This document shows, piece after piece, positions 38,509 to 56,407 of a DNA stretch of 64,000 nt. Origin of the DNA: Polyangiales bacterium (GTDB lineage Bacteria > Myxococcota_A > Polyangia > Polyangiales > Ga0077539); NCBI GenBank assembly GCA_044229975.1, contig JBGARZ010000010.1:160001-224000 (forward strand), read 5' to 3'. A model generated the notes under the pieces. The model saw only the letters and a program-made list of their open reading frames with translations, searched no databases and was not told the origin of the DNA. Within the stretch, counting starts at the first letter, position 1. Each line of letters starts with the position of its first letter. Made by a program: the position numbers and the translations under genes.

Positions 38509-38797
38509 CGTGGGGCCGGGGTTCACGGTGCAGGCTCCGCGTCTGTCGCGTTCCGTTCGCTCCGGTCAATGGTAGGGGGTCACCCCGTCGCTGCGCGACG
38601 GGGTTGCAGGGAACACCACCTCGATCCCTGTGGAAGATGGAGTTCGAAAAGAACTCAATCCTGCAACCCCGTCGCGCAGCGACGGGGTGACCCCCTACCC
38701 ACGCGATGTGCATCAGCCGGCGCCAACCTGTTGATTGCGCGAGCGAACTCCCGGCAGCCACGGGAACATCGGAGCTCCTACACACACGAGGTGCCCA

Positions 38798-40902
38798 ATG
38801 ACTGCCGAGAGCCCGAACGATATCTCTGTCGCGTCCGTGGTGGCCAGTTCGCAGCCGGATCCGCTGGTTCCCGCGGGACTCGCCGAGTGCGCGATCTGGG
38901 CGCGCCACTTCTGGAACACCTGGCAGCTTCTCCCGATCTGCACGATGGTCACGGTCCCGATGCGTCGCGTTGGCGACTACGCCTTCGTCGACATCCTCCT
39001 GGTGCTGCTCGCTCATGCTTGCAGCGGCAATCGCTCTCTCGGGGAGACCTCTTGCCGGTTCCGGCCCGTCGCGCCCGCGCTCATGTCGCTGTGGGGTCGC
39101 GACGCGATGCCCTCCGCGTCGCAGATCGGTCGATGGCTGGCTCGCATCGATGAGTGGTCGATGGAGGCGTGGCGATCCCTTTTTTTCACGACCTCTGTCA
39201 GCACGGGGTGCGCGGATCACGCCTGGGCGGCGTCTTCGGCGCGGACGGTCGCCGCTCGTTGATCTTTGACGCCGATGGCACTCGCGTCGCCGTGCGCCAG
39301 CGTGCGGTGCCGGAGGATGAGTCACGGCCGCCGGTGTTCCGTCGCGTGAGCCCGTCGGCCGCGGCGCCAGGTCACACGGGACGCAAGCGCGGCGAGATGG
39401 TTCGAACGCGCATGACGGTGCAGCTGCGGCACACCAGCGAGTGGCTCGGCACCTTTGGCGAGCCCGGCAACGGCGACGCGAATGCGGCGGTCGAGCGCGT
39501 GTGTCAGGTCGTCACCGCCTACCTCAAGGCCCACGACCTGCCGCTCGCCCTCGGCGTCGTGCGCCTGGACGGTGAGCACGGCTGGCTGCACCGCATCGCG
39601 CGCATCGTCGACCACGGCCTGGGCTATCTGGTGCGGTGCTGCGACTACAAGATCCTCAAGAGCCCGATCCTCGCGGCGGCGCTGGCAGCCGGTGCGATCG
39701 CTCGCATGACCCACGAAGACACGGGGGTCGTGCGCGAGCTGTTTGATCTGCCGGCCTACCCCTGGAAGACGCTTCGCGGCGGCGTCCGGAGTACGCGGCT
39801 CGTCGTCGCGCGGCGGCGGGTCCCGATGGACGTCAAGGTGACGGTTGGCAAGCGGGTGGGCGAGTGGGTCTACGAGATGATCGCGACGGACCGTACGGCC
39901 TCCGAGTGGGACGCCGCCCAGGTCTTCGCGCTCTACCTGGAACGTGGCGCGTTTGAGCGCACGCTCGGCGAGGAAGACCGGGAGCTGCCGACCGATCGCT
40001 GGGTGAGCTACCGCGAGAACGGGGAGGAGGTCTGGCAGATCCTCTGTCAATGGATCTGGAACCTCCGACTGTGGCGAGGCGTGGAGGCGCTGGGGGCGGT
40101 GCCTGATCGAGACGTCGTGGACACGCTCGCGGAGGCGATCGAAGGGGAGTCCGTCACGCTCTCGGAGACCGAGCTGGTCTTCGTCAGTGACGCGATCGTG
40201 GAGCCTGCGGTCGAGGCGTCGGTGGAGCCTGCGGTCGAGGCGTCGGTGGAGCCTGCGGTCGAGGCGTCGGTGGAGCCTGCGGTCGAGGCTCAGGTCGTGG
40301 CAGTGCCGTTTGGATCGGGTGCCTTTCGACAACGAAGCGCGTTGCTGGTGGTCTGCCCGTCAGGCGTCGAGATGCACGCCTCGGAGCGGGTCCATCTCGC
40401 GAAGGAATCCCGGATTCGGTATGCCGCTCCTGGGGCCAAGTGTGCGGAGTGCGAGTGGTCCATGGCCTGCCGCGGGTCGACCGCGAAGGAGGCGCGGGGT
40501 CGTCGGATCACGATGCGCGACGGGTCGAGTGCGGCGCCCCCCTTGGCCTCGCAGCCATCCGCCGATCCGGTGATGTCGTCGGCGCACGCGCGGGATGTGG
40601 CGCCCCGCTGGGAAGCACGTTGGGAAGCGACGCCGCTCTGGCATGAGACGTTGAGGGGCGCCGCGCTGCGGCGGTACCTCCCGAAACTGCTGGCGGGCCA
40701 GCGAGTCCGTTGTGACGTGATCGAACGCCCATCTCAACCGCCACCACCGTCCCGACGGAGTCAGCGAGCGAAGCGAAGGACACGCTGGCACGAACGCTGG
40801 AGCCGGAACCTCCTGACCACTCGCGTCTGCACCATCACGCTCCCCGGGATCCACGCGGAACTCGCAAAAGTCGTGGACTTACCGACAGTCCGCGCCGGCT
40901 GA
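38798..40902 (+). pseudogene. DDE transposase split by a -1 frameshift at the T7 run 39180-39186
   Basis: GAGGTG RBS and ATG 38798; frame 1 ...WRSLFF, frame 2 FFHDL...FDADGT, RLDGEHG, YLERGAFE; stop lies inside the right TIR. Confidence 0.8.
40198..40289 (+). repeat. 24-bp tandem repeat x3.8 encoding VEPAVEAS inside the transposase
   Basis: GTGGAGCCTGCGGTCGAGGCGTCG repeated. Confidence 0.95.
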
Positions 40903-41013: not shown

Positions 41014-41868
41014 CTACCGAATCACCCCCACAAACACCACCGCCCCCAACGCCAGCGCCGCGTAGCGATACCGCAGCCGCACCGCGCGCAACCCCCGCCG
41101 CTCGCCCCGTCGCACCAGCGCTACGATCGTCGCCAGCCACCACGCCGCGAAGGCCGCCGTCGCTCCCGCGAGCGCCCACCGCCCCGCGACGCCGCGCGCG
41201 AGCCACCACGTCACCACCGGCAGCGCCGCGAGCCCGATGGACGCCGCGAGCAGCGCACCGCGCACGCCCGTCACCACGGCCACGGTGAACACTTCACCCG
41301 CCAGATCGTCGTCGCGGTCTTCGGCTTCGTGCAGGAGCTGGCTCACCACCAGGAGCAGCGCGAAGAGCGCGACGAGCAGGCGCAGCGGAGCGCTGGGTGA
41401 GCGCGGCGTGTCGGCCAGGAAGAGGCCGGGGAGGGCGATGACGACGTTCCAGAGCGTGCCGAGGACGGGGACGCGCTTGAGGCGCGGCGGCGCGGAGTAC
41501 ACCGTGGCGGCGACGAGCAGCAGCAGCGTCGGGACGAGGCCCGCGGGCGAGAGCCACGCCGACAGCGCGACCGAGAGCAGCGCCGGCGGAACGGAGAGCA
41601 GCAGGGCCTCGCGGCGACCGAAGCGGAGGCCGACGGGGTTCTTTCCGGCGCGCTGATCGAGGCGATCATCGAAGGCCTGGTTGACCGCCGACATGAAGGC
41701 GAGGGCCATGGTCCAGGCGGCGAGCCCGCCGACGAGGGAGCGCACGCTGCGGGTGTCGCCCGCGCACCAACCGGCCAGCGGGAGCGGGAGGAAGTGCACC
41801 CAGTCGAGCACGCGATAGAGGCGCGCGAGGTCAGCCACGCTGAGCGGTGCGGCGCGGGTTCCGATCAC
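41014..41868 (-). CDS. UbiA superfamily prenyltransferase
   Basis: NQAFDDRLD...KNP, YSAPPRLK, HEAEDRDDD; multiple TMs; GTGA overlap with radical SAM stop. Confidence 0.85.
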   Translation of the reverse strand: MIGTRAAPLSVADLARLYRVLDWVHFLPLPLAGWCAGDTRSVRSLVGGLAAWTMALAFMSAVNQAFDDRLDQRAGKNPVGLRFGRREALLLSVPPALLSVALSAWLSPAGLVPTLLLLVAATVYSAPPRLKRVPVLGTLWNVVIALPGLFLADTPRSPSAPLRLLVALFALLLVVSQLLHEAEDRDDDLAGEVFTVAVVTGVRGALLAASIGLAALPVVTWWLARGVAGRWALAGATAAFAAWWLATIVALVRRGERRGLRAVRLRYRYAALALGAVVFVGVIR

Positions 41869-42887
41869 GGCGCGGAGGTCCCGAGGGCGACGTCGACGGC
41901 GGAGAGGAGGAGGCGCACGTCGAGGTCGAGGATGCGGTTGACCTCGTACGACGGAACGCACGCGCAGCCGGGCCCGGTGGGCGGTGCGAGCTCGTCGAAG
42001 GCGCGGGTGAAGCCGCGCGCGCGGCCGTTGCCGGGCGTGACCTGGGCGCGGGTGAGGAGGCAGTGGGAGACGGTTCCGTCGCTGAAGACGTAGCCGTAGT
42101 AGGTGCCCGCCCAGCAGTGGTCGCAGTCGAGCAGGTAGCGCTGCCCCTCCTGGCGGGCGAGGGAGGCGTCGGAGTTGCCGACGGGCGCGCCCTCGCGCTT
42201 CCGGGCGCGGAGGTGACGCGCGAGCGAGGCGATGCGCTCGTGGCGGATGGACGGGGCGATGGGGCGCAGGACGTCCATGGCGGCGTCGTGTTCGAGCTGG
42301 AAGAAGGCGCGGATGCCGTGGGCGCGCGCGACATCGAGGACGTGGTCGACGTGATCGACGCCGGCCGCGGTGAGCACGGTCATGGTGACGACGGCGACGT
42401 CGCGCGAGCGGAGCGTGTCGATGGCGCGCAACACGCGGGCGTACGAACCAGCATGGCGCTGGCGGTCGTGGAGGCTCTCGGGGCCATCGAGGGTGACGCA
42501 CGCGAGGTCGAGCCCGGCGAGCTCATCGATGCGATCGGGGACGAGCCAGCCGTTGGTGTTCATCGACGCATGAACGCCGCGCTGCTTGAGGTGACGGAGC
42601 ACGTCGGCGAGGCCGCGGTAGAGGAGGGGTTCACCGCCGATGAGGCTGGCGCGGCCCATGCCGCCGGCGTGGAGGTCGTCGATGGCCGCGATCCATTCGG
42701 AGGGCGACATCTCCTCGATGCGCTGAAGCGGGATGTGGCAATAGTCGCAGCGGAAATTGCAGCGGTTGGTGAGCGAGAGCGTCACCTGGAAGGGGCTCTT
42801 GCGGCGCGTGACACGGCGGGCTCCGAGCTGGAGAAGCGGGAGCGCCCGGCGGGCGATGGAGTGCAGCGTGGTGGGTTCGCTGCTCAT
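41865..42887 (-). CDS. Radical SAM protein with Twitch/SPASM-like C-terminus
   Basis: CNFRCDYC, GGEPLL, MNTNG, CWAG...DGTVSHC...CAC. Confidence 0.9.
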   Translation of the reverse strand: MSSEPTTLHSIARRALPLLQLGARRVTRRKSPFQVTLSLTNRCNFRCDYCHIPLQRIEEMSPSEWIAAIDDLHAGGMGRASLIGGEPLLYRGLADVLRHLKQRGVHASMNTNGWLVPDRIDELAGLDLACVTLDGPESLHDRQRHAGSYARVLRAIDTLRSRDVAVVTMTVLTAAGVDHVDHVLDVARAHGIRAFFQLEHDAAMDVLRPIAPSIRHERIASLARHLRARKREGAPVGNSDASLARQEGQRYLLDCDHCWAGTYYGYVFSDGTVSHCLLTRAQVTPGNGRARGFTRAFDELAPPTGPGCACVPSYEVNRILDLDVRLLLSAVDVALGTSAP

Positions 42888-42954
42888 CGCCGGGCGACGC
42901 TAGCAACGCGCCGCGCGGAGGGTCAAGGCGCGTACCATCGCGGCATCTCACCCG

Positions 42955-44244
42955 ATGCCCCTCTTCCCTCGTCGCCTGCCCCGCGGTCAGCTCTACTTCG
43001 AGCCGCTAGGCGTCCTCGCCGACGCCGTCCGCCGGCTCGGACCGACGCCTCCCGCGGGCTCCGTCGTCCGCCGCTTCGAGCGCGCCTTCGCCGATGAGCT
43101 CGACGCCCCCGCGGCCGTGGCGCTACCCCACGCGCGCGTGGCGCTCCACTACCTCCTGCAGGTGCTCGCGCTGCCGCGCGGCAGTGAAGTCGCGATGACC
43201 CCGGTGACCATCCCCGAGATCGTCTCGGTCGTGCTCATGGCGGGCCTCGTCCCGGTCTTCGTCGACCTCGCGCCGTACACCTGCAACATCGACTGCGACG
43301 ACCTCGCGCGGAAGATCACACCCCGCACCCGCCTCCTCCTCCTCACCCACCTCGGCGGCCTCCCCTCCGAGATGGACTGCGTGATGGCCCTCGCCGCGCA
43401 ACACAACCTGGAGGTGCTGGAGGACTGCTCGCAGGTTCCGGCCACGCGCTATCGCGGCCGTGCGCTCGGTCTCTTCGGTCGCGCGGGCTTCATGAGCCTC
43501 ACGCCGCTCAAGCCGGTCTCCACCTTCCACGGCGGCATGACCATCACCCACGACCGCGCCCTCGAACGCGAGCTCCGCCGCCTCGTCGACGGGTCGCCGC
43601 CGCCGCTGCCGCCGCGCGAGATGCTGCGGCTGCTCGTGCGCGACCAGGTGCTGCACGCGACGACGCACCCGACGGTGTTCTCGCGACTCACCTGGTACGG
43701 GGTGCGCGCGGGCGAGGCGCTGCGCCCGGAGGTGGTGCGCGAGTTTCAGCGGGGCAATCTGTTCAACGACCCGGCGCGGCGACGACGGGTGGTGCGGCTC
43801 GACCGGCTGCCCGATCGGATGCTGGCGCGCTACTCGGACCTGCAAGCGGCCATGGGGCTGCGCGGGCTGCGCACGCTCGCGGCGGGCAACGTGCGTCGGC
43901 GGGAGCTGTCACTGCTGCTATTGGGGCTGCTGCGCGACGCGGGTATTGCGGGGCTCGTGCGCATCCCGGTGGATGAGGGCGACTGCACGTTCTGGCGCTT
44001 CCCGCTGTGGGTGGAGGAGGCATCGCGCATCCCGGCGCTGCGACGGCGACTGCTCGCGCGCGGGGTTGATACGTCGCCGACGAACCTGGAGTGCTGCTCG
44101 CGCGAGGCGGCCTTCGTGGAGCGCAACGCCGACACGCCTGAAGCGCGGAAGTATGTGGATGGGATGATCTTCCTGCCGATGCACCCGGCGCTCACCGAGG
44201 CGGACGTCCGCCGCATCGCGCGCGAGGTGGCCGAGGTCACGTAG
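42955..44244 (+). CDS. DegT/DnrJ/EryC1/StrS PLP-dependent aminotransferase
   Basis: FERAFA, PVFVD, LEDCSQ, SLTPLKP (Schiff-base Lys), FLPMHPAL. Confidence 0.88.
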   Translation: MPLFPRRLPRGQLYFEPLGVLADAVRRLGPTPPAGSVVRRFERAFADELDAPAAVALPHARVALHYLLQVLALPRGSEVAMTPVTIPEIVSVVLMAGLVPVFVDLAPYTCNIDCDDLARKITPRTRLLLLTHLGGLPSEMDCVMALAAQHNLEVLEDCSQVPATRYRGRALGLFGRAGFMSLTPLKPVSTFHGGMTITHDRALERELRRLVDGSPPPLPPREMLRLLVRDQVLHATTHPTVFSRLTWYGVRAGEALRPEVVREFQRGNLFNDPARRRRVVRLDRLPDRMLARYSDLQAAMGLRGLRTLAAGNVRRRELSLLLLGLLRDAGIAGLVRIPVDEGDCTFWRFPLWVEEASRIPALRRRLLARGVDTSPTNLECCSREAAFVERNADTPEARKYVDGMIFLPMHPALTEADVRRIAREVAEVT

Positions 44245-46361: not shown

Positions 46362-47744
46362 ATGGCTGACCAACACGACGAACCCGACAACCCCAACGTC
46401 CCCGGTCACGAGTGGTTCGGGCCGCTCTCGCTGCAACCGCTCAAGCAGTTGGGGAAGTTCGTCAACGAGTGCGACGACTTCACCAAGGAGCTGCGCGTCG
46501 AGAGCCGGTCGTCGGTCTTCAAGGCCCACCCCGGCATCAAGAGCACCTTCATCACCGACATGGCGGGCCTGGAGTTCGTCTTCGACGCGAAGCCCGAAGA
46601 GCTCGACCGACTCAAGGACGAGCACCCGGGCTTCGGCGGCCTGGCGTTCAACCCCCAGATGCTCGGCGACGTGGTGCCCGCGCTCATGACCCACGCGGGC
46701 AATCACGCTCCGGCGCGCAAGCTCATCCTGGAGGTGCTGAAGCTGCGCCGCGCGTCCTTCAAGCCCGCCTGCGAGAAGGTGCTCCACTACGGCATCCCGA
46801 TGCTGCGCGAGGCGCCCCGCGGCACCCCGGTGAACTTCCAGCACGCGATGCACCACGCGGCCATCAGCATCTGCTTCGAGTGGCTCTTCGACCTCACCCT
46901 CGACTCCCCGACCGCGGGCGCCGACGCCGAGAGCTGGATCAAGGGGTGTTTCAGCCTGAGGTCCGATCAGCCCATCGCCAACGCGCTCGCCCGCCTCGTG
47001 GGCCGACTCAAGAACGGCCCCAACGCCAGACAGCGCGACTACGGCGCCAGGACGATGGACGCCATCCGCGGCAGCGCGCCGTACTCGTCCTTCGTCGAGG
47101 TCGCGCGCCAGGTGGGGGTGCCCGAGAACGACGTCGCGGCGCACCTGATGTTCGCGGCCAGCTTCAACGCCACCGGCGGCGCGTGGTCGACGCTGCACCC
47201 GGCCCTCGCGCAGCTCTCCGTCGACGCCGTCACGCGCGCCCGGCTGGCGAAAGAACTCCTCGCGTTTCGCGGCACCGTCTACGAGCTCGACAAGCTCCCG
47301 CACCTCCACGATTTCTTCCTGGAGTCGATGCGCCTCTTCGGCCGTCCGCGTCACTACTACCGCCGCGCGAAGGTCGACCTCGACATCCCCGTGAGCGTCG
47401 GCCCGTCGGTTCACGTCAAGGCAGGCACCACGCTCTGCCTGGTCGCCACCAGCGCCCGCCAGGACCGCACCGTGTGGGGCGACGACGCTGCCATCTTCGA
47501 CCCCGAGCGCTACGCCCGCAAGCCCGAGCTGCGCGCCCGCGTCCACCCCTTCGGCCCGTCACCGAGCTCGCCCAGCCAGTACGGCTGCGCGGGCATGGAA
47601 GACCACGTCGCGGCGATTCTCTGGAAGACGCTCGCCGCCGCGCTCGGCCGCTCCGTCGACTGGAAGCTGTCGCCCTGGCCCGAGCCCGACGTCGACGCCT
47701 TCGCCGGCGTGCGCCCCGCCGAGTTCAAGTGGGTGCGCGAGTAG
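46362..47744 (+). CDS. Cytochrome P450 of the CYP74 clan (allene oxide synthase/hydroperoxide lyase-like)
   Basis: I-helix AHLMFAASFNATGG; ESMR (ExxR); RAKVDLDI; FDPERY; extended heme loop HPFGPSPSSPSQYGCAG; RBS GGAGG. Confidence 0.85.
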   Translation: MADQHDEPDNPNVPGHEWFGPLSLQPLKQLGKFVNECDDFTKELRVESRSSVFKAHPGIKSTFITDMAGLEFVFDAKPEELDRLKDEHPGFGGLAFNPQMLGDVVPALMTHAGNHAPARKLILEVLKLRRASFKPACEKVLHYGIPMLREAPRGTPVNFQHAMHHAAISICFEWLFDLTLDSPTAGADAESWIKGCFSLRSDQPIANALARLVGRLKNGPNARQRDYGARTMDAIRGSAPYSSFVEVARQVGVPENDVAAHLMFAASFNATGGAWSTLHPALAQLSVDAVTRARLAKELLAFRGTVYELDKLPHLHDFFLESMRLFGRPRHYYRRAKVDLDIPVSVGPSVHVKAGTTLCLVATSARQDRTVWGDDAAIFDPERYARKPELRARVHPFGPSPSSPSQYGCAGMEDHVAAILWKTLAAALGRSVDWKLSPWPEPDVDAFAGVRPAEFKWVRE

Positions 47745-47753
47745 GCGCGGGCG

Positions 47754-47977
47754 CCGGAGTTCGCGTGCCCCCATGAGCCGGGGTGCAGTCGCTCACTCCG
47801 GGCTATTTCACGTGCTCACCTCGCGGCGCGAGGTTGCGGTAGCTCGGGGTTGCCGATGAACGGTCAATGGGTCGTCCATTGAGGTCAGTGCTGCAACCCC
47901 GCGCCGCGGGGTGACAACCTGAAATAGCCCGGAGTGAGCGACTGCACCCCGGCTCATGGGAGGCACGCGAACTCCGG
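47754..47977. repeat. Long palindrome between convergent P450 and lipoxygenase genes (REP/MITE-like; possible bidirectional terminator)
   Basis: CCGGAGTTCGCGTGCC..CCATGAGCCGGGGTGCAGTCGCTCACTCCGGGCTATTTCA pairs with TGAAATAGCCCGGAGTGAGCGACTGCACCCCGGCTCATGG..GGCACGCGAACTCCGG. Confidence 0.88.
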
Positions 47978-48006
47978 GGCCCACCGCGCGCTCGGATGAG
48001 CCCCGA

Positions 48007-49647
48007 TCAGATGGAGACGCCGGTCTCCAGGTAGCGCGGGTTGAAGGTCTCGCACGGCCACGGGCGCTCCGGGTCGGCCTTGCGGCGGACGTTGGCGGCG
48101 TCGATGTCGGCGGACAGCGCCGCGAGGGCGTCGTGGAAGCGCGCGAAGGCGGCGCGGCCGAGGTGGTCGGCGTCGAAGACCCCGGCGGCGTCGCCGAGGT
48201 CCATGAGCTGGGGCATCTGGAGGCCCGTGAGCGCCATCACGAGCAGCGCCTGCATCGACGCCTGGATGTCGGACATCTCCTGCCCCGCGCGAATCTTGGT
48301 GCCCATGAACGTCGGGTCGAGCACGTACTCGTGCACGGTGCCGACGGCCTCGTGCAGCCCCGTCACGCTCCAGATGAACTGCGCGAGCACGTCGATGAGC
48401 GACTCCCGCGAACGCCCCGGAAACTTCACCGTGGCGGGCGCGGTGTTGAGGTGGTTCCAGAAGCCGATGACGGCGAGGTCGTCCATGACGGCCTTCTCGT
48501 CCTTCGCATACTGGCCGATGTAATCGACCACGAACGCGTGGATCACCTCGTACAGCTTCAGCGCGTCGGTGGCCCACGGAAACCGGTCGCCCATCCCCGC
48601 GGCCTTCTTGTGCTCGATGAGCTGCGGCACCGTGTAGAAGCGCATGAGCCCGACCGCGTCGCCGAAGGCGTGCGTGAGGGCGTCGTATTCGAGCGCGCTC
48701 GACCGGTGCACGAACCCGCGCTCGGGGCACAGCGTGTCGCACGCCCCGGCGTTGATGGTGATGGTCCGCCAGGTGAAGGGCTTGAGCAGCAGCCGCAGGT
48801 AGTGCGTGGGCGGCAGCTTGATGCGCGCCGCGGTGGTCACGTAGTTGGCGATGATCCAGTGCACGCCGACGAGGTGATCGACCACCGTGGTGCCGACCAT
48901 CAACGAGCACCGCCAGGCCCACTTCGCGTGCTCCCACTCCCGGTTGATCGGCTGCCCCGGCTTCGGGGGATGGACCCACCGCTTCCCTTCGCTCCAGAAG
49001 ATCGCGATGGGCTTCTGGTCGGCGTCGAAGACCGCGCGCGCCCCGTAGTGCTCGAAGCCGTCGCGAACCTTGTACCGCGAGAGGAAGGTCAGGTCGTGCT
49101 GCCACGTCGCGCCGACGAGCTCCCTGGCGGGGTCGTCCGTGGCCTGCTTGTAGGGCAGCAGTCGCAGCGCGGCGAGCCCGGCAAACGCGAGCCGCGACAT
49201 GGCGGCGTCGGACTGCATCTCGTCCCAGTGGTGGTACGGCCGGGCCATGTACGAGCCGAGCGGCAGAACCTTCTGGAAGGTGTCGCGCGCCTCTTCCGCG
49301 CTCCCCCACCGCTCCTTCGGGTCGGTCACCGGGAAGAAGTAGTTGTTGCGCAGCAGCCACAGGAAGGCGCGCCGCTTCCAGTCGGCCGCGGGCCAGTCCT
49401 CATCCTCCTTGGGGAGTTGCAGCCGGTTGTCGTCGCTGCCGAAGGGCATCGGCAGGAGATCGGTCTTGCCCGACAGGCGCGGCGGCCGGACCTTGTCGAC
49501 CGTGGGCAGGTCGCTCTTCCACTGCTTGATCGCCCCTTTGATCATCTTGAGGAACAGCCGCGTGTGGCGGTCGAGCTTCTTCACGCGAACCGACGCGGCG
49601 CCGTAGGTGATGGCGGCGTCCGTGGTGGCGAGGGCGGCGGTGGACAT
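48007..49647 (-). CDS. Lipoxygenase (atypical)
   Basis: WEHAK, DHLVGVH, LLKPFTWRTITINAGA, VTGLHEAVG, C-terminal GVSI ending in the Ile metal ligand. Confidence 0.85.
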   Translation of the reverse strand: MSTAALATTDAAITYGAASVRVKKLDRHTRLFLKMIKGAIKQWKSDLPTVDKVRPPRLSGKTDLLPMPFGSDDNRLQLPKEDEDWPAADWKRRAFLWLLRNNYFFPVTDPKERWGSAEEARDTFQKVLPLGSYMARPYHHWDEMQSDAAMSRLAFAGLAALRLLPYKQATDDPARELVGATWQHDLTFLSRYKVRDGFEHYGARAVFDADQKPIAIFWSEGKRWVHPPKPGQPINREWEHAKWAWRCSLMVGTTVVDHLVGVHWIIANYVTTAARIKLPPTHYLRLLLKPFTWRTITINAGACDTLCPERGFVHRSSALEYDALTHAFGDAVGLMRFYTVPQLIEHKKAAGMGDRFPWATDALKLYEVIHAFVVDYIGQYAKDEKAVMDDLAVIGFWNHLNTAPATVKFPGRSRESLIDVLAQFIWSVTGLHEAVGTVHEYVLDPTFMGTKIRAGQEMSDIQASMQALLVMALTGLQMPQLMDLGDAAGVFDADHLGRAAFARFHDALAALSADIDAANVRRKADPERPWPCETFNPRYLETGVSI

Positions 49648-49670: not shown

Positions 49671-51536
49671 CTACCGCACCAGCACCTGCGGGTGCGCGAA
49701 CAACGCCACCCCGTCCACCCGCACCGTGACCTGGTGCAGTCCCGCGGCGAGCCCGCGCGCCGTCGCGGTGTATGTGCCGTTGCCCTCGTCGCTCACCGTC
49801 AGCGCCACGTCACCGGGCGCCATCGTCACCGCGACCCGGTGTCCCCCGCCCAGCAGTCCACCGTCGGGTCGCGCGGGCCGCACCGTCACCCGCGCATCAC
49901 CGCCCGCCGCCACCATCGGCGGCTCCACCGTCAGCCAACGGGGCTCTTCCACCACGACCTCGGCGCCCGCCAGCACGGGCCCGGAGCGCTGCACATAGCC
50001 GTCGGGCCAGCGCACCTCCACGGACTCTGCGCGGGGCCAGCCCGCGAGCCCGTACACCAGCCGGTGCTCGCCGTAGCCCCACGGCGCGCCGCCGCTCTGC
50101 ATCTCCTGCACGAGCAGCCGCGACCCGACGCGCGCGCTCACCTTCGCGCCGACGCCTTCGGAGTTGGAGACGGTTCCGCGCAGGCGCACCGCGAACGATC
50201 GCCCGCCCACCACCTCGTTGCGCAGGAGGCGCGGGGCCATGCTGGTTCCGCCCATCCAGTAGTCGGTGCGGCCGTCGCGATCGAGGTCGCTGCCAGTCAC
50301 CCAGAAGCTCGTGTACGTGCCCACCTGATGCAGCAGCGGCGTCGCCTCGGTGAACACCCCGTCGCCGCGGTTGTGCCGCAGAAACGCCGTCGGTGGTGTG
50401 TAGAACCCGTCGGTTACGCCGACGGCGACGACGAGGTCGGGCCAGGTGTCGTTGTCGTAGTCGGCGAAGCTCGCCCCGAAGGCCACGGTCTCGGCCTCGG
50501 AGGGGTGCAGCATCGGGAGGTCGATGCCCGCCTGCGCCGCGACGTCCACGCGTCCACCGCGGTGCGTGTAGAGGTGCTGCGGACCGATATCCAACAGGTA
50601 CAGGTCGAGCTTCGCGTCGCCGTCGACGTCGGCGGAGGCCGCGCCCATGAGGGCCGCGGGGTTGTACTCGGGGCCGAAGTAGAGCCGGTCGAAGGTCTCC
50701 TCGACGTAGGGCCGCGACGACGACGACGAGGTGCGATGCAGGTAGCGCGCGGGCGGCCCGAGCTGCTCGTCGAAGAGCAGGAAGAGGTCGGTCAGCCCGT
50801 CGTCATCGACGTCCATGAAGAAGTTGGACCAGCTCGCGCCCAGCGTCTCGCCGAAGGTCTCGGTCATGGATTCGACCCAGGTTCCGTCCGGGCGGCTCAG
50901 GTACATCCGCACGGGCGCGTCGGCGTCGAGCACGTGGCGCGTGACGAGGTCGAGGCGGCCGTCGAGGTTGATGTCCGAGAGGTCGACGCCGGAGAACATC
51001 GCGCCGCGCGTGGCGTTCCACGGACCGAAGCCCCACGCGACGCTGACGTCCTCGAAGCGGCAGTTGCCCTGGTTGCGATACACCCGCAGCTCGGGGCGAA
51101 ACGGGCCCATTCCCCCCATCTGCGCGCGGACGAACTCCGACGCGCTGATGGACACGATGAGGTCGGGTCGTCCGTCGTTGTCGAGGTCGCCGAAGGCCGC
51201 GGCGGTCGGTCCCTCGCGGTCGGCGCCGGGCAGCGCTCCGAGAGACTCGAAGTGGAAGTTGCCGGTGTTGCGCCAGAGCACGCCGCGGCTGCTCCACCCG
51301 AAGACGTAGGCGTCGGGGAGGCCGTCGGCGTCGCAGTCCCCGATGGCCGCGGCGTTGACGGCGCCCATGCGGGGGAAGGGCCATCCGCCGATCTCGTCGA
51401 GGCGCACACCCGACGTGGCGAACTGGTCGACGAAGCCGCGCGAGTCGTCGTAGCGAACCGTCGGCGGGGCCATCGTGGCGGGCGCGTCGGAGCAGCCCGC
51501 GAGGGCGGCGAGCAGGAGGGCGGACCTACGCCTCAT
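49671..51536 (-). CDS. CRTAC1-like FG-GAP repeat / ASPIC-UnbV lipoprotein
   Basis: LAGC lipobox; repeated DxDxDGxxD; LRNE, SNSEGVGAKV, VEVRWPDG. Confidence 0.88.
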   Translation of the reverse strand: MRRRSALLLAALAGCSDAPATMAPPTVRYDDSRGFVDQFATSGVRLDEIGGWPFPRMGAVNAAAIGDCDADGLPDAYVFGWSSRGVLWRNTGNFHFESLGALPGADREGPTAAAFGDLDNDGRPDLIVSISASEFVRAQMGGMGPFRPELRVYRNQGNCRFEDVSVAWGFGPWNATRGAMFSGVDLSDINLDGRLDLVTRHVLDADAPVRMYLSRPDGTWVESMTETFGETLGASWSNFFMDVDDDGLTDLFLLFDEQLGPPARYLHRTSSSSSRPYVEETFDRLYFGPEYNPAALMGAASADVDGDAKLDLYLLDIGPQHLYTHRGGRVDVAAQAGIDLPMLHPSEAETVAFGASFADYDNDTWPDLVVAVGVTDGFYTPPTAFLRHNRGDGVFTEATPLLHQVGTYTSFWVTGSDLDRDGRTDYWMGGTSMAPRLLRNEVVGGRSFAVRLRGTVSNSEGVGAKVSARVGSRLLVQEMQSGGAPWGYGEHRLVYGLAGWPRAESVEVRWPDGYVQRSGPVLAGAEVVVEEPRWLTVEPPMVAAGGDARVTVRPARPDGGLLGGGHRVAVTMAPGDVALTVSDEGNGTYTATARGLAAGLHQVTVRVDGVALFAHPQVLVR

Positions 51537-52512
51537 GCGCGACGGCTCCGGGCGTGAGCGGGAGCTTGCGGAAGTACGCCACGAGGAAGCCCAGGTAGCT
51601 GCGTCGCACCTCCACGTCGGGTCGTCCCGCGAGCAGGGGTTGGAGTCGGGGGAGGTTGTAGTAGGGCACGTACGGCCACAGGTGGTGCTCCGCGTGGAGG
51701 TTGAGATGGTAGGGCGAGAACAGCGCCCGCTCGACGGCTCCCGGCGCGAAGGTGATGAGGCGCAGCGGGTCGGCCGCCGCGTCGGGCAGCACCGGCACCG
51801 CGTGCTCGCAAAACATCCTGATCTTGTGCGGAACAAACACCAGCGGATAGACCGGCGCGATCCAGAACGCGAGGTAGTACCAGGCCGGGAAGCGCGACCA
51901 GATGGCGAGGAAGATCATCGCCTGCGCCGCGAGCGTTGCACCTCGCCGTCGAACGAATCCCTTGAGCGCCTCGGCGAAGGGCGTCGGAGTCGAGGGACCG
52001 GCGCCGCCGTGGAGGGCCTTGTGTAGAGCGCGCGGAAACATGGTGAGCCCGGTGAGGAAGAGCACGAAGTCGAGGCGCGTGGACTTGTCGACGACCGAGT
52101 AGAGGTAGCGGTCGGGGTCGTCCTCGGTGGCGAGGAGCTGGTGGTGACGCCCGTGGTTCTTGCGCTCGCCGTGGAAGTCGACGCCGACCGGGGCGCAGAG
52201 CGCAGCCTGGGCGAAGAGGTCGTTGGTGCGGCGGCGCGCGAAGAGCGTGCGGTGGTCGCCCTCGTGGGTGAGCACCGACAGCGCGTACTGCCGGTTGCCG
52301 ATGACGAGGAAGGCGACGACGGCGCTCCACCACGTCGGCGCGCGAGCGAGCAGGACGAAGGCGAGGAGGATGGTCGCGTAGCAGAGGGCGGTGTCGGCGA
52401 CGACGCGCCACGGGCGATGCTGGAGCACCTCGCGGAGGAGAGGACTGCCCGGTGGGAGCAGCCGTCGGCCGAGGGCCTCGGGGTCGAGCACCGCAGGTGG
52501 CAATCGGCTCAC
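51526..52512 (-). CDS. Membrane fatty acid desaturase family protein
   Basis: His boxes HEGDH, HGRHH, EH, HAEHHLWP.VPYYNLP; GTGA overlap with radical SAM stop. Confidence 0.9.
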   Translation of the reverse strand: MSRLPPAVLDPEALGRRLLPPGSPLLREVLQHRPWRVVADTALCYATILLAFVLLARAPTWWSAVVAFLVIGNRQYALSVLTHEGDHRTLFARRRTNDLFAQAALCAPVGVDFHGERKNHGRHHQLLATEDDPDRYLYSVVDKSTRLDFVLFLTGLTMFPRALHKALHGGAGPSTPTPFAEALKGFVRRRGATLAAQAMIFLAIWSRFPAWYYLAFWIAPVYPLVFVPHKIRMFCEHAVPVLPDAAADPLRLITFAPGAVERALFSPYHLNLHAEHHLWPYVPYYNLPRLQPLLAGRPDVEVRRSYLGFLVAYFRKLPLTPGAVAHEA

Positions 52513-53633
52513 GAGTGCCGCCCGAGCAGCGCCCCGACGCGCCCGGTGAAGGAGTCGTAGAGGCGGCTCATCTCGACGAGGTCGAGGTTGCGCGCGTACG
52601 ACGACTCCCAGCACATGCAGCCGTAGTCGCGGGACTGCATGTGCTCGCGCGCTTCGTTCGCGCGGTGGGCCCGCCAGAGGTCGTCGAGCTCGGCGTCGAC
52701 GAGGCTCCCGATGTGCGAGTCGGCGCGGCCGTGGCAGAGCTTCACCGCGCCGTTGGCCTCCACCACCGCCGTCGTCGCCGGAACCAACAGACACCGGAAC
52801 CCGATGTCCTTCTGGAGCGCCTCGCGCTCGAAGACGTAGCGCGGCAGCAGGTCGTAGTAGCGGCCCGCGAGGAAGGGGTGGCGCGCGCGCAGCGCGGCGT
52901 AGGCGCGCTCGAACTCCGGGCGGTCTTCGGGGCGGAAGAGGCAGCTCCGGTCGCGCACCTGATGGAGCCCGTTGTCCTGGATGATCTGGAAGAGAACGTT
53001 GTCCGCGTGCTCGCTCCAGTGGTCGATGAAGGCGTCGAGATCGCGGTAGTTGTGGCGGTTGATGGTGCAGCGCACCTGCACCCGCGGCCCGTCGGTCGTG
53101 CGTCGCGCGCGCAGCTCGTCGGCGGCCTTCTCGACGCGGTCGAAGAGCCCGGCGCGCCCGCGGAAGGCGTCGTGCTTCGCGGCCTCGGCGGCGTCGACGC
53201 TGAGGGTCACCACGTCGATGCCCGCGTCGAGCACGGCGTCGACGTGGCGCCCGAGGCGGTCGCCGCTGGTTCCGATGAAGACGCGCTTGCCGCCGTCCTT
53301 CAAGGTGCGCGCGAGCTCGAACACTCCATCGACCAGGAGCGGTTCGCCGCCGATGAGGGACACGCCCCAGGCGTCGCTCGCGGCCAGCTTGCGGGCGACG
53401 GTGAGACGTTGCGCGCGGGTGAGCTCGTCGGGGAGCGGGCGGTTCATGGAGCAGTGGGCGCAGGCGAGGTTGCACGCCTCGGTGACGGCCCAGCTCAGGA
53501 AGACGGGGTTCTTCGCGCGCAGCACCGGCAGCGCGGTGCTGGCGATGTTGCGGGCCAGCGGAACAAGCGCTGGACCGAGGTCGCCGAGGGTGACGCCCGT
53601 GGTCGTGGGGGTGGTTCTCTGGCGGGGCGACAT
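52509..53633 (-). CDS. Radical SAM protein with Twitch/SPASM-like C-terminus
   Basis: CNLACAHC, GGEPLL, HDAFRG, C...NGAVKLC...IGSL...CMC. Confidence 0.9.
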   Translation of the reverse strand: MSPRQRTTPTTTGVTLGDLGPALVPLARNIASTALPVLRAKNPVFLSWAVTEACNLACAHCSMNRPLPDELTRAQRLTVARKLAASDAWGVSLIGGEPLLVDGVFELARTLKDGGKRVFIGTSGDRLGRHVDAVLDAGIDVVTLSVDAAEAAKHDAFRGRAGLFDRVEKAADELRARRTTDGPRVQVRCTINRHNYRDLDAFIDHWSEHADNVLFQIIQDNGLHQVRDRSCLFRPEDRPEFERAYAALRARHPFLAGRYYDLLPRYVFEREALQKDIGFRCLLVPATTAVVEANGAVKLCHGRADSHIGSLVDAELDDLWRAHRANEAREHMQSRDYGCMCWESSYARNLDLVEMSRLYDSFTGRVGALLGRHS

Positions 53634-53723
53634 CGGGGGTGCTTCTGCCGGAGTCTCGACGCTCGCACGCATCGGGGCGGCGAGGCAACGACCGCCGTGG
53701 GCGTAGCTGCGCTGACGCGGTCC

Positions 53724-54527
53724 ATGGGAGACTCCGCGGCGCCCATGCGCGAGATGACCCCCGTCGAGCGGATCAAGCCGCCGTCCCCGGAGGAGTTCGA
53801 GGAGCGCTACGTGCGCCCGTCCCGTCCGGTGATCTTGCGCGGCGCCATCGACCACTGGCCTGCGCTGCGGTGCTGGTCGCGCGACTACTTCAAGCGCCGC
53901 TTCGGCGACCGCAGCGTGCCGGTCATCCGCAAGAAGGGCGGAGCGATGTACGACGCCAGCGCGGGGCTCTTCTACGAGCGCATGCGCGTGGCGGACTACG
54001 TCGACCAGCTCACCGAGGCGCGGCCGAGCGACCTGTACATGGTGTTTCGGGTGCACGAGGTGCTGCCGGAGATCTTCGACGACATCGCGCGCCCGGCGTA
54101 CTGCCATGACGCGAGCTGGTACCGCGCGCGGTTCTGGTTTGCGGCGCCCGACACCAAGGGGCCGCTGCACCGCGACCTGCCCGAAAACCTCTACGCGCAG
54201 GTGTCGGGTCACAAGCAGTTCGTGATGATCGACCGTCGGCTCACACGGATGGTGCACCGTCATGCGTTCTACTCGGGCGTTCCCAACTACAGCCCGGTGG
54301 ACGCCGAGGAGCCCGACCTGCTGCGCCACCCGCGCTTCCGTGACGCTCCGCGGATGCTGGCCACGCTGGAGCCCGGCGACCTCTTCTACATCCCGAGCAT
54401 GTGGTGGCACCAGGCGCACTCCCTCGACCTGAGCCTCTCGGTGAACCTCTGGTGGGCCCGCGGCTGGATGGTGCCGGTGGTGAGGGCGGCGGAGGCGTTC
54501 ATGAAGGTGCGCGACCTGAAGCTGTGA
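53724..54527 (+). CDS. JmjC/cupin_8 Fe(II)/2-oxoglutarate dioxygenase
   Basis: RPVILRG, LHRD, NLYAQVSGHK, LEPGDLFYIPSMWWH, SVNLW. Confidence 0.9.
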   Translation: MGDSAAPMREMTPVERIKPPSPEEFEERYVRPSRPVILRGAIDHWPALRCWSRDYFKRRFGDRSVPVIRKKGGAMYDASAGLFYERMRVADYVDQLTEARPSDLYMVFRVHEVLPEIFDDIARPAYCHDASWYRARFWFAAPDTKGPLHRDLPENLYAQVSGHKQFVMIDRRLTRMVHRHAFYSGVPNYSPVDAEEPDLLRHPRFRDAPRMLATLEPGDLFYIPSMWWHQAHSLDLSLSVNLWWARGWMVPVVRAAEAFMKVRDLKL

Positions 54528-55306
54528 GGTCCGCGACGCTGATCCCCCGCACCGCCGCCCCCACCGCGGAGCGCTTCGAGCGCGACCACCGCGCGCCTGG
54601 CCGCCCGGTGGTGCTCACCGACCTCCTCGACGGCGTGGCCCTCCGCGGCGCCCTCGACCTCGCCCGACTGCGCGAGCAACACGGTGCGTCTGCGGTTCCC
54701 GTTGCGCGCATGCGCGGCGATGACCTCGTCGTCGACCCGGCCCGCGGCATCGCGCAGGACCCCGTCGCGCTCGGTGACTTCCTCGACGGCCTCGCCGCCG
54801 GCGCCTCGCGCGGCTACCTCATGGCGCGCGCCGAACAGCTCCCACCCGCGCTCCGTCGCGAGCTCGTGGCGCCGCGGTATTGCGACGGCGCTCCGTGGGT
54901 CGTCTCCAAGCTCTGGGTGGCCTCCGCGGACACCGTGTCGGCGCTCCACCGCGACCTCGCCGACAACCTCCATACGGTGGTCGATGGCGAGAAGCTCTTC
55001 ACCCTCGTCTCGCCCTCACAGGACGATCGGGTGTATCCGCACGGCCTGCTCGCGGGGCTGCCCAACGCGGCGCGCGTCGACCTCGATCGGCCCGACTACG
55101 AGCGCCATCCCCGCTCGCGCGCCATCGAGACGGTGACGGCGCGGCTCTCTCCCGGCGAGACCATCTTCATCCCGCACGGGTGGTGGCACCACGTCCGGAC
55201 GGTGCGCGGCAGCGTCTCCATCAACACCTGGTGGGCGCGCGGAACCCGCCTCCCCATCGTGGCGCTCGCCGACTGGTTCAAGCGGGTGCGCGGGCTCAGC
55301 CGCTAG
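54524..55306 (+). CDS. Second JmjC/cupin_8 dioxygenase (paralog)
   Basis: GTGA overlap; LHRD, GEKLF, PGETIFIPHGWWHHV, SINTWW. Confidence 0.9.
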   Translation: MRSATLIPRTAAPTAERFERDHRAPGRPVVLTDLLDGVALRGALDLARLREQHGASAVPVARMRGDDLVVDPARGIAQDPVALGDFLDGLAAGASRGYLMARAEQLPPALRRELVAPRYCDGAPWVVSKLWVASADTVSALHRDLADNLHTVVDGEKLFTLVSPSQDDRVYPHGLLAGLPNAARVDLDRPDYERHPRSRAIETVTARLSPGETIFIPHGWWHHVRTVRGSVSINTWWARGTRLPIVALADWFKRVRGLSR

Positions 55307-56337
55307 CGCTGTGCTGCTCGCGCGACGGTGAGCTCGCGCTGGACGGCGTCGATCATCTCGGAGGTGGTGAGCTCGGCGCCGCGGCGGCTCCAGTGGCGAT
55401 CGCGGTCGACGAAGTAGCTGTTGGGCCCGCGCGGCGTCCAGATGCGCTCGACCGGGACGCCCCGCTGCCGGAGCTGCTCCATGAGATAGGGGTAGGCCTC
55501 GCAGCCCGGGGTTGCGTCGTCCAGCAGGAAGAACAGCGACCGCACGTTGGTCGCCTGCATGTTGCGCAGGTACTGGTCGACCTTGGCGATGAGCTGCGCG
55601 CGCGGCACCGGCGGCGACTCCCCGCGCTCGCGGTTGTGCACATAGAACATCAGCCGCGCCAGGTTGGAGCGGTCGATGAGCCACTTCCACACGCGGCTGC
55701 GCGGCACGAGCACGCGGGTGTAGTCGAACTGCTCGGTGAGGTGCCACGGGCGCACGAGCATCACCATGAGCCGCGGCTGCTTCACCGGTCGCACGAGCTC
55801 TGCGGTGCGAAAGGTCTGCACGATGTGCTGCCCGATCACCCCGCAGTTGCCCACGCTGATGCCCGCGAACCCCCTCGCGCGGAGCTGCGTCTGCAACATC
55901 GCCGAGACGGTGTCTTCGGCCGGGACGAGCATGCCGAAGCCCTGCGAGCTGCCGAGCACGACGACCTCGGAGGTCTCGGGAATCGGGCCCGTGGAGGGCG
56001 CGCGGCAACCCGCCTCGTCGATGCGATAGAGCGTGTACCCGGGGGGCGGAGGCGCCGTGACCGGGCGCGTCGGGTCGCCGAGGTGGATGAGGTCGAGCAC
56101 CACGTAGAGGGGCGCGCGCCAGACGTCGGCCTTGGCGTGTCCGAGCCACGTCCCGGGGGTGCTCTCGTAGACGAGCTCGCGGTCGCGGGAGGGCCGCAGG
56201 ATGCGGTTGGGCCGCGCGACGAACTGCCCCGCCAGCACCTCCAGCACCACCAGCATCGCGAGGAGCGACAGGGGCCAGCGCAGCCTGCGTCGCCAGCTCT
56301 TGGGTCGGGGGGCGGTGGCCTCGGCGGTCGACGACAC
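55303..56337 (-). CDS. Membrane-anchored SGNH-like protein
   Basis: Single N-terminal TM; VVVLGSSQGFG, NCGVIG, DRHWS..G; start uncertain (56337 or 56373). Confidence 0.65.
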   Translation of the reverse strand: MSSTAEATAPRPKSWRRRLRWPLSLLAMLVVLEVLAGQFVARPNRILRPSRDRELVYESTPGTWLGHAKADVWRAPLYVVLDLIHLGDPTRPVTAPPPPGYTLYRIDEAGCRAPSTGPIPETSEVVVLGSSQGFGMLVPAEDTVSAMLQTQLRARGFAGISVGNCGVIGQHIVQTFRTAELVRPVKQPRLMVMLVRPWHLTEQFDYTRVLVPRSRVWKWLIDRSNLARLMFYVHNRERGESPPVPRAQLIAKVDQYLRNMQATNVRSLFFLLDDATPGCEAYPYLMEQLRQRGVPVERIWTPRGPNSYFVDRDRHWSRRGAELTTSEMIDAVQRELTVARAAQR

Positions 56338-56407
56338 CCGGCGTTGGTAGCCCGCGGGTCGAGAGACGGTCAATCACGCGGAGAGTTGCGGTAGAGTCCG
56401 CGCCATC

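Follow-up and report, generated by a model that had tools for sequence, protein, structure and literature searches.

A lipoxygenase-linked bacterial cytochrome P450 on the CYP5164 branch and its probable role in a two-step oxylipin pathway of uncultured myxobacteria

Results

A 64,000-nucleotide window from a Polyangiales bacterium (assembly GCA_044229975.1, contig JBGARZ010000010.1, positions 160,001 to 224,000 of the forward strand) contains two neighbouring genes, an atypical cytochrome P450 gene (P0001, 46362..47744, + strand) and a divergent lipoxygenase (LOX) gene (P0002, 48007..49647, − strand); all coordinates are window positions unless another sequence is named. From their sequences and those of their relatives we conclude that the two enzymes probably form a two-step oxylipin pathway, in which a hydroperoxide made by the LOX would be isomerised by the P450. 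The P450 is part of a bacterial family that falls on the CYP5164/CYP50918 branch. This family is new and, though on the CYP5164 side, likely works like CYP74 enzymes; the probable product of the pair is a bacterial oxylipin that nobody has isolated yet. The initial annotation, made from the sequence of the window alone, had proposed that a CYP74-like P450 and the LOX act sequentially. That idea is well supported by synteny, co-divergence, gene fusions in the wider branch and predicted structure, while the family assignment had to be revised as described below.

A word-indexed search returned 28 relatives of the P450 (51-86% identity) and 51 relatives of the LOX (35-85% identity). A LOX orthologue adjoins the family P450 in 15 of 16 loci (10 of 11 from GTDB genomes and all five from metagenomes), or in 11 of 12 after removal of near-copies with more than 90% identity; at the exception, L009, the available sequence begins within the P450. 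Thirteen of the paired loci are tail-to-tail and two head-to-head, their flanks differ, and no further gene of the window recurs. The synteny check proposed in the initial annotation came out in its favour. The pairwise identities of the P450s and the LOXs correlate strongly (rho 0.96, 12 loci), which, as kin share their history, shows co-inheritance only. As an indirect sign of linkage, 11 of the 28 P450 relatives have a longest contig equal in length to that of a LOX relative. Among 401 genomes sampled across the phylum, three have a close P450 and four a close LOX, the fourth LOX lying at a contig edge. Among 41 related genomes, the same three of eight congeners carry both genes side by side and the remaining five carry neither; the three positive congeners are records already counted among the paired loci. 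Taken together, the P450 and the LOX form a conserved two-gene module of uncultured myxobacteria.

Most relatives lie in records titled Myxococcota or Deltaproteobacteria, apart from one Klebsiella and one Alphaproteobacteria record that are perhaps mislabelled. No family member was found in viral contigs, nor at useful coverage in plasmids. Among the sequencing runs listed, no RNA run contained the pair; in four DNA runs, the contigs cover the two genes piecewise.

To place the P450, its family profile was searched against 1.84 billion representative sequences, which gave 45 matches below 1e-30; 30 matches were looked up. The search reached the Plasmodiophora hydroperoxide bicyclase (HPB) CYP50918A1 at an E value of 3.5e-42. 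Other named matches came from brown algae, a chytrid, a euglenid and a Tectomicrobia metagenome-assembled genome, and much weaker ones from lancelet, Trichoplax, Hydractinia and a strawberry fragment, together with which the plant CYP74B sequences were retrieved. In a careful tree of 50 rows, in which the plant rows are CYP74B only and the Methylobacterium hydroperoxide lyase (HPL) is not among the rows, the query family (support 100/100) joins CYP50918A1, brown-algal and many metagenomic proteins in a branch of 24 rows (100/98). A second branch (15 rows, 100/99) comprises plant CYP74B, animal and FNAWxG-type sequences, and both branches are split (100/99) from 11 conventional P450s, an outgroup limited to matches of the family profile. 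A quick tree of 100 rows, from which 18 of 118 candidate rows, mostly conventional P450s, were left out, agrees with the careful one and places the query family with the CYP50918A1/brown-algal branch (48 rows, SH-aLRT 98). The family is a side branch of this group and is not nested among the eukaryotes. Grouping it with the conventional P450s was rejected by the approximately unbiased (AU) test (p=0.031), as was grouping it with the classical CYP74 clan (p=0.002). The P450 lies outside the classical CYP74 clan of plants, animals and FNAWxG-type bacterial sequences and, at 17-18% identity, outside the CYP74 family. The annotation as CYP74-like thus stands for the I-helix Asn and the structural match described below and fails on phylogeny, which unites the P450 with CYP50918A1 and the brown-algal proteins.

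Profile-profile comparison gave its best result against the CYP50918/brown-algal set (E 3e-52). Over the whole length the P450 is 25% identical to CYP50918A1 (E 1e-30) and 27% identical to the brown-algal protein P0104 (E 3e-39), a sequence that bears no CYP name and whose CYP5164 membership derives from our analysis. Members of a CYP family share more than 40% identity, according to the parts consulted of a 2024 review (PMC10813956), in which CYP5164B1 and the hydroperoxide bicyclases are described as recently united in a separate clan, CYP5164. The P450 stays below this value for the CYP74, CYP5164 and CYP50918 families, and we regard it as a new family because its identity to CYP50918A1 and the brown-algal protein is this low.

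The open reading frame (ORF) of the P450 is intact and encodes 460 amino acids (aa). Its I-helix AHLMFAASFNATGG (residues 260-273, 47139..47180, + strand) is present as initially quoted and contains no acid-Thr pair; neither an (A/G)GxxT-type motif nor (A/G)G(D/E)T was found. In the family profile alignment Asn269 (codon 47166-47168) aligns with the FN of the I-helix of the allene oxide synthase (AOS) AtAOS (FAASFNATGG in the P450, FATCFNTWGG in AtAOS), Asn replacing the acid-Thr pair that activates O2. The K-helix ExxR (E321-R324, 47322..47333, + strand) is followed by LFGRPR where plants have the PPV motif, giving ESMRLFGRPR; CYP50918A1 is also devoid of PPV. The ExxR and the cysteinyl haem ligand of CYP74-like P450s are both present, and F91, N269, G273, E321, R324, G398-P399 and G408-C409 are invariant in all 26 aligned relatives. 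In the P450 of locus L015 a Tyr stands at the Cys position, probably through an alignment shift at an insertion such as the one that P0019 has before its Cys.

The haem loop HPFGPSPSSPSQYGCAG (residues 395-411, 47544..47594, + strand; Cys409 at 47586-47588) is remodelled: it reads QYGC without GxRxC, and the canonical FxxGxRxC is absent. A [FYW]GC haem signature is common to the P450, CYP50918A1 and the brown-algal sequence. The loop had initially been described as lengthened, and by motif alignment it is 5-7 residues longer, two residues short of the insert of AtAOS. However, it does not have the nine-residue insertion of CYP74, and the PERF Arg and the Cys lie 26 residues apart, compared with 28-31 for the classical clan; this spacing is no larger than in two conventional controls (26 and 29).

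Pfam assigns P0001 to the p450 family barely past the cut-off (E 2e-5) and P0002 to the Lipoxygenase family (E 6e-14), and NCBIfam has no name for either. A PDB search with the single P450 sequence matched only BM3, weakly, so the link to AOS needs the family profile, for which AtAOS is the best PDB match (1.2e-7) with the I-helix FN and the GP...C loop aligned. In the AlphaFold model of the P450 (predicted local distance difference test, pLDDT, 86.7), six AOS entries rank top in both Foldseek (TM 0.74-0.76) and VIA (Z 31.6-30.2); the best VIA match has Z 31.6 and a root-mean-square deviation (rmsd) of 3.2 over 417 aligned residues, and the next family follows at Z 29.2. Sequence identity is 16-18% to the AOS structures and 17% to guava HPL. 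The ESM Atlas returned generic P450 clusters, one of them named allene oxide synthase, as well as LOX clusters, which we treat as leads only.

The LOX ORF is also intact and encodes 546 aa from ATG, with a GTG 9 nt upstream, and comprises the catalytic domain only. H258, H263 and H432 are invariant in all 47 aligned family members, and the protein ends in VSI (Ile546). An HEAVG motif (H432-G436, 48340..48354, − strand) stands where the canonical HAAVN does. Ala302 aligns with an Ala of the Pseudomonas enzyme (numbering from the alignment), which we take to give S-specificity in that enzyme. The predicted structure of P0002 (pLDDT 92.9) has the LOX catalytic fold: all 50 VIA matches listed are LOXs, the best with Z 31.7 and rmsd 3.0 over 449 aligned residues. 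Pfam, fold, the three His and the terminal Ile thus bear out that the neighbour is a LOX, though an atypical one with regard to Gly436, which stands in place of the Asn ligand.

Elsewhere in the host genome, a truncated second copy of this LOX (C-terminal 186 aa, 65% identity) lies at G000:C24:51669-52226 (L026) with no P450 nearby. Two tandem LOX genes, one of them encoding a protein with a changed His motif and HV at its end, are located directly upstream of a gene for a 1757-aa kinase-AAA-GAF-cyclase (L063:1271-10902, G000:C32).

Several relatives of the pair are associated with further genes. Two close P450 relatives carry a fused N-terminal alpha/beta hydrolase, whose best 11 PDB matches are all epoxide hydrolases (best 3e-26). 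A gene for a kinase-AAA-GAF-cyclase of about 1,750 aa is a direct neighbour of the pair or of the P450 in L004/L013/L015, L014, L009, L010 and G397, a count that is a lower bound taken from selected ORFs; in L006 a lone cyclase lies between the P450 and LOX genes. Genes for patatin or cyclic nucleotide (cNMP)-regulated patatin adjoin the kinase-cyclase or the pair in L011 and G397, and in G189 they come before a P450 that is more distantly related; P0111 is a patatin-P450 fusion. Scanning 39 long matches revealed, in the wider branch, five P450-ACBP-LOX fusions, besides one P450-LOX, one patatin-P450 and one peroxidase-P450 fusion. The window itself has no epoxide-hydrolase, patatin or kinase-cyclase accessory; a kinase-cyclase of this type occurs in the host beside two other LOX genes. 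Apparent P450 fusions in L013-L015 were discarded, as the long upstream frames are antisense shadows of the kinase-cyclase gene, and an apparent P450-kinase fusion in G397 proved to be two genes in different frames.

The host also carries a pfa1-pfa2-pfa3 cluster with a terminal acyltransferase domain (L062:1581-18437, G000:C10), which is the architecture of myxobacterial polyunsaturated fatty acid (PUFA) synthases, as stated in the portion consulted of PMC6731297. A PfaA-like match (E<=1e-190) was found in all 14 genomes with the family P450 or LOX, kin that are not independent, compared with 64 of 201 genomes of the phylum sample, and PfaD-family genes passed the cut-off in 116 of the 401 sampled genomes.

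At the locus itself, the two genes are convergent, with 262 nt between their stop codons, and a GGAGG ribosome-binding-like site precedes the P450 gene. Between the stop codons lies a palindromic repeat (47749..47982, no strand assigned) of about 230 nt that resembles miniature inverted-repeat transposable elements or repetitive extragenic palindromes; its 68-nt arms are 93% complementary, and 38 copies occur across the host genome. The repeat is not part of the P450-LOX system, since most other tail-to-tail loci have a gene gap of less than 60 nt. No sigma-70-like promoter was found at the pair and no terminator above chance. On either side of the pair, at 41014-44244 and 51526-56373, lie clusters with genes for a UbiA prenyltransferase, a DegT aminotransferase, radical SAM/SPASM proteins, a fatty-acid desaturase and two JmjC/cupin-8 oxygenases; these clusters are not conserved with the pair. 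The flanking IgGFc-binding, FG-GAP/ASPIC, desaturase, radical-SAM and cupin genes were dropped as parts of the system, being absent from the neighbourhoods of the other loci. A transposase-like ORF with a tandem VEPAVEAS repeat is located at 39154-40902, with repeated DNA nearby at 38570-38690 and 38870-38990.

Among more distant sequences, the P450-ACBP-LOX fusions P0089, P0091, P0107, P0124 and P0151 include one chytrid record and two on ENA contigs of 8-13 kb. Fusions of a haem peroxidase (dioxygenase) to a P450 (P0144, P0148, P0173, P0190, P0215, P0120) resemble fungal dioxygenase-P450 fusions, and five of them carry P450 domains of the CYP74-clan type in metagenomic proteins. At L084:7248-11113 (G425:C9) a more distant LOX of the same subfamily as P0002 is paired tail-to-tail with P0370, an atypical P450-like protein unrelated to the present family and preceded by a patatin; P0370 has no Pfam match and no acid-Thr pair, so the three-part patatin/P450/LOX layout recurs here with a different P450. 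Plasmids of Picosynechococcus, Acaryochloris, Nostoc and Synechocystis encode P450s 23-28% identical to a metagenomic protein of the CYP74-clan type. The one from the PCC 7002 plasmid (L043, NC_010474.1) lies beside siderophore uptake genes, and no LOX was seen among the annotated neighbours of a cyanobacterial plasmid P450 in the one region viewed.

Discussion

In the pathway that we propose, the LOX would add O2 to a PUFA, probably made by the host, and Ala302 suggests S-specific dioxygenation. The P450 haem would then homolyse the O-O bond of the hydroperoxide without requiring O2, NADPH or a redox partner. For CYP74-like enzymes, the sections consulted of two articles describe how the haem and the I-helix Asn cleave the O-O bond to an epoxyallylic radical, which is converted to an allene oxide, epoxy-alcohol, hemiacetal or divinyl ether with no O2 or reductase (PMC10813956, PMC8124189). 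The absence of a ferredoxin, which the initial annotation had listed, was confirmed for PF00111 (2Fe-2S) and PF13370 on the whole 382-kb contig; however, it is weak evidence because the conventional P450s on the same contig are likewise without one, and we do not count it as a strong argument.

The product would most likely be an epoxy-alcohol or a bicyclic epoxide. The characterised members of the nearer branch are one epoxyalcohol synthase (EAS) and two bicyclases, which act on 13S-HPOT and 15S-HPEPE (PMC12843491, PMC10864609, both consulted in part). Because of these activities, and because two relatives have an epoxide hydrolase fused to the P450, an epoxide is the best guess. If the P450 is active as supposed, an EAS is the leading candidate at a little under an even chance, followed at some distance by an HPB, then by an AOS and, least likely, by an HPL or some other activity, these last two being equally probable. 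More loosely, the product might be a signal, with the kinase-GAF-cyclase and cNMP-patatin genes that neighbour the pair in relatives serving to read or trigger it.

Alternatively, the P450 could be a plant-like AOS or HPL, and the products of the pair would be cyclopentenones resembling jasmonate, or volatile aldehydes, close to the plant jasmonate and green-leaf-volatile synthesis invoked by the initial annotation. The similarity of the I-helix to AtAOS, the top structural matches to AOS and the invariant Phe91 in the region of substrate recognition site 1 (SRS-1) speak for it, and enzymes of the clan change their product by few substitutions (PMC10813956). However, identity is only 17-18%, grouping with the classical clan was rejected (p=0.002), and AOSs were the sole CYP74-like structures to appear in the structure searches, so the match cannot choose a product. 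Given that the characterised enzymes of the nearer branch are an EAS and HPBs and that two relatives have the epoxide-hydrolase fusion, we consider plant-like products unlikely and less likely than an epoxide.

The pair could also serve in the disposal or remodelling of lipid peroxides, with the P450 clearing hydroperoxides of host PUFAs and the Gly-for-Asn LOX acting mainly as an isomerase or being weakly active. The Asn ligand is indeed lost throughout the family, the carriers have PUFA synthases, and some bacterial LOXs have isomerase activity, according to the portion consulted of PMC13319228. Nevertheless, the three His, the C-terminal Ile and Ala302 are kept over 37-86% identity, and both the patchy spread (three or four of 401 genomes, compared with 116 of 401 for PfaD) and the kinase-cyclase neighbours fit a specialised signal better, which makes this explanation improbable. 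That the P450 is a peroxygenase or a reductase-dependent monooxygenase acting on another substrate, the hydroperoxide being a mere oxidant or unused, would agree with its profile similarity to conventional P450s, the BM3-only single-sequence PDB matches and a haem loop no longer than in the controls, but seems very improbable in view of the missing acid-Thr pair, the invariant Asn269, the tree and AU test, and the near-obligate LOX neighbour.

Several observations weigh against the proposed two-step pathway. Gly436 replaces the Asn iron ligand in all 47 aligned LOXs, a position where Asn, His or Ser would be expected, and throughout the family Thr takes the place of the first His in the His-rich motif; dioxygenase activity of the LOX is therefore not assured. 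A soybean LOX Asn694Gly mutant has been studied and reportedly keeps reduced activity. The host has three further LOX genes that could supply the P450, and its other LOX genes include two with the canonical HAAVN. In three of the 11 GTDB loci an intact LOX stands next to a disrupted P450 (by a frameshift in L002, a stop in L003 and a deletion in L008), and G427, a 93% complete genome, has the LOX without a family P450, so the P450 appears dispensable in some lineages. L003 and L008 have a common neighbourhood, suggesting decay of the P450 in that lineage; the breaks may be decay or assembly error. As the genes are convergent, no transcript is common to both. In structure, AOS matches lead those to ordinary P450s by a small margin of about 2 Z, and profile-profile comparison scored better against conventional P450s (2e-30) than against plant CYP74B (8e-13), the conventional set being biased in that it was picked from the query profile's own matches. 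Finally, F91, in the SRS-1 region where the profile alignment is of low confidence, lies one column off the conserved Leu of plant CYP74B, which we take to be the Leu of the F/L toggle (Phe in AOS and some EAS, Leu in HPL and divinyl ether synthase, DES).

A wider extension, which we regard as doubtful, is a full eicosanoid-like circuit in myxobacteria, in which a PUFA synthase, a cNMP-regulated patatin lipase, the Gly-ligand LOX, the CYP5164-branch P450, an epoxide hydrolase and a kinase-GAF-cyclase receptor would together make bicyclic oxylipins, compounds hitherto reported from brown algae and Plasmodiophora alone, the largely uncultured bacterial branch being the source of the eukaryotic hydroperoxide bicyclases.

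Outside plants, animals and algae, P450s that rearrange hydroperoxides have been believed to occur in a few proteobacteria at most, and the literature examined reports the CYP5164 branch from brown algae and Plasmodiophora alone. We found no description of a bacterial LOX-CYP74/CYP5164 pair or of a bacterial member of the CYP5164 branch, although bacterial homologues may be mentioned in subscription papers that deal with CYP50918A1, with CYP5164A3, with the P450s of stramenopiles or with the CYP74 structure of 2008. Such a pair is not mentioned in the parts consulted of a 2026 review on bacterial LOXs (PMC13319228) and of a preprint on LOX bioinformatics (10.1101/2022.06.21.497025). The pair could show the fate of bacterial LOX products and whether a LOX works with Gly for the Asn ligand. 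It bears on the origin of oxylipin enzymes and might give cofactor-free biocatalysts for epoxy-alcohols or cyclopentane oxylipins, and as a two-enzyme system it is suited to expression in Escherichia coli and assay within weeks.

The closest known relatives are the enzymes of the CYP5164 clan, namely Plasmodiophora brassicae CYP50918A1 and, from Ectocarpus, the EAS CYP5164B1 and the HPB CYP5164A3, which share the branch of the P450 (100/98). CYP50918A1 and the brown-algal protein have LDR..FG in SRS-1, ExxR..PR and [FYW]GC in common with it, CYP50918A1 also the FN of the I-helix. In contrast to this clan, the P450 is bacterial, less than 40% identical and genetically tied to a LOX, and its spacing from the PERF Arg to the Cys is 26 residues instead of the 32-33 of CYP50918A1 and the brown-algal protein. 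With plant CYP74 enzymes (AOS, HPL, DES, EAS) it shares the I-helix Asn, the lack of an acid-Thr pair, the GP...C loop, the best structural match and, probably, the chemistry performed on hydroperoxides supplied by a LOX. Unlike them, it has 17-18% identity, no PPV, an insert of fewer than nine residues and YGC in place of KQC, and it lies on a separate branch (AU p=0.002). The HPL of Methylobacterium nodulans, named in the parts consulted of PMC10813956, is likewise a bacterial hydroperoxide-using P450, but the metagenomic FNAWxG-type sequences that we take to represent its group are placed with the plant and animal sequences on the other branch. The fusions of catalase-type AOS/HPL to LOX in corals and cyanobacteria and the fungal dioxygenase-P450 fusions similarly couple hydroperoxide-making and hydroperoxide-rearranging enzymes, whereas the present system combines an iron-type LOX for the first step with a P450 for the second, encoded by separate convergent genes. 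The bacterial LOXs of Pseudomonas aeruginosa, Cyanothece (CspLOX2), Enhygromyxa salina and Myxococcus have the fold predicted for P0002 (Z 28-32, rmsd about 3, 440-460 residues aligned) and share its three His and C-terminal Ile. P0002 is 17-20% identical to the characterised ones and differs from them in having Gly in place of the Asn ligand and Thr where the first His would stand, and in lacking a PLAT domain.

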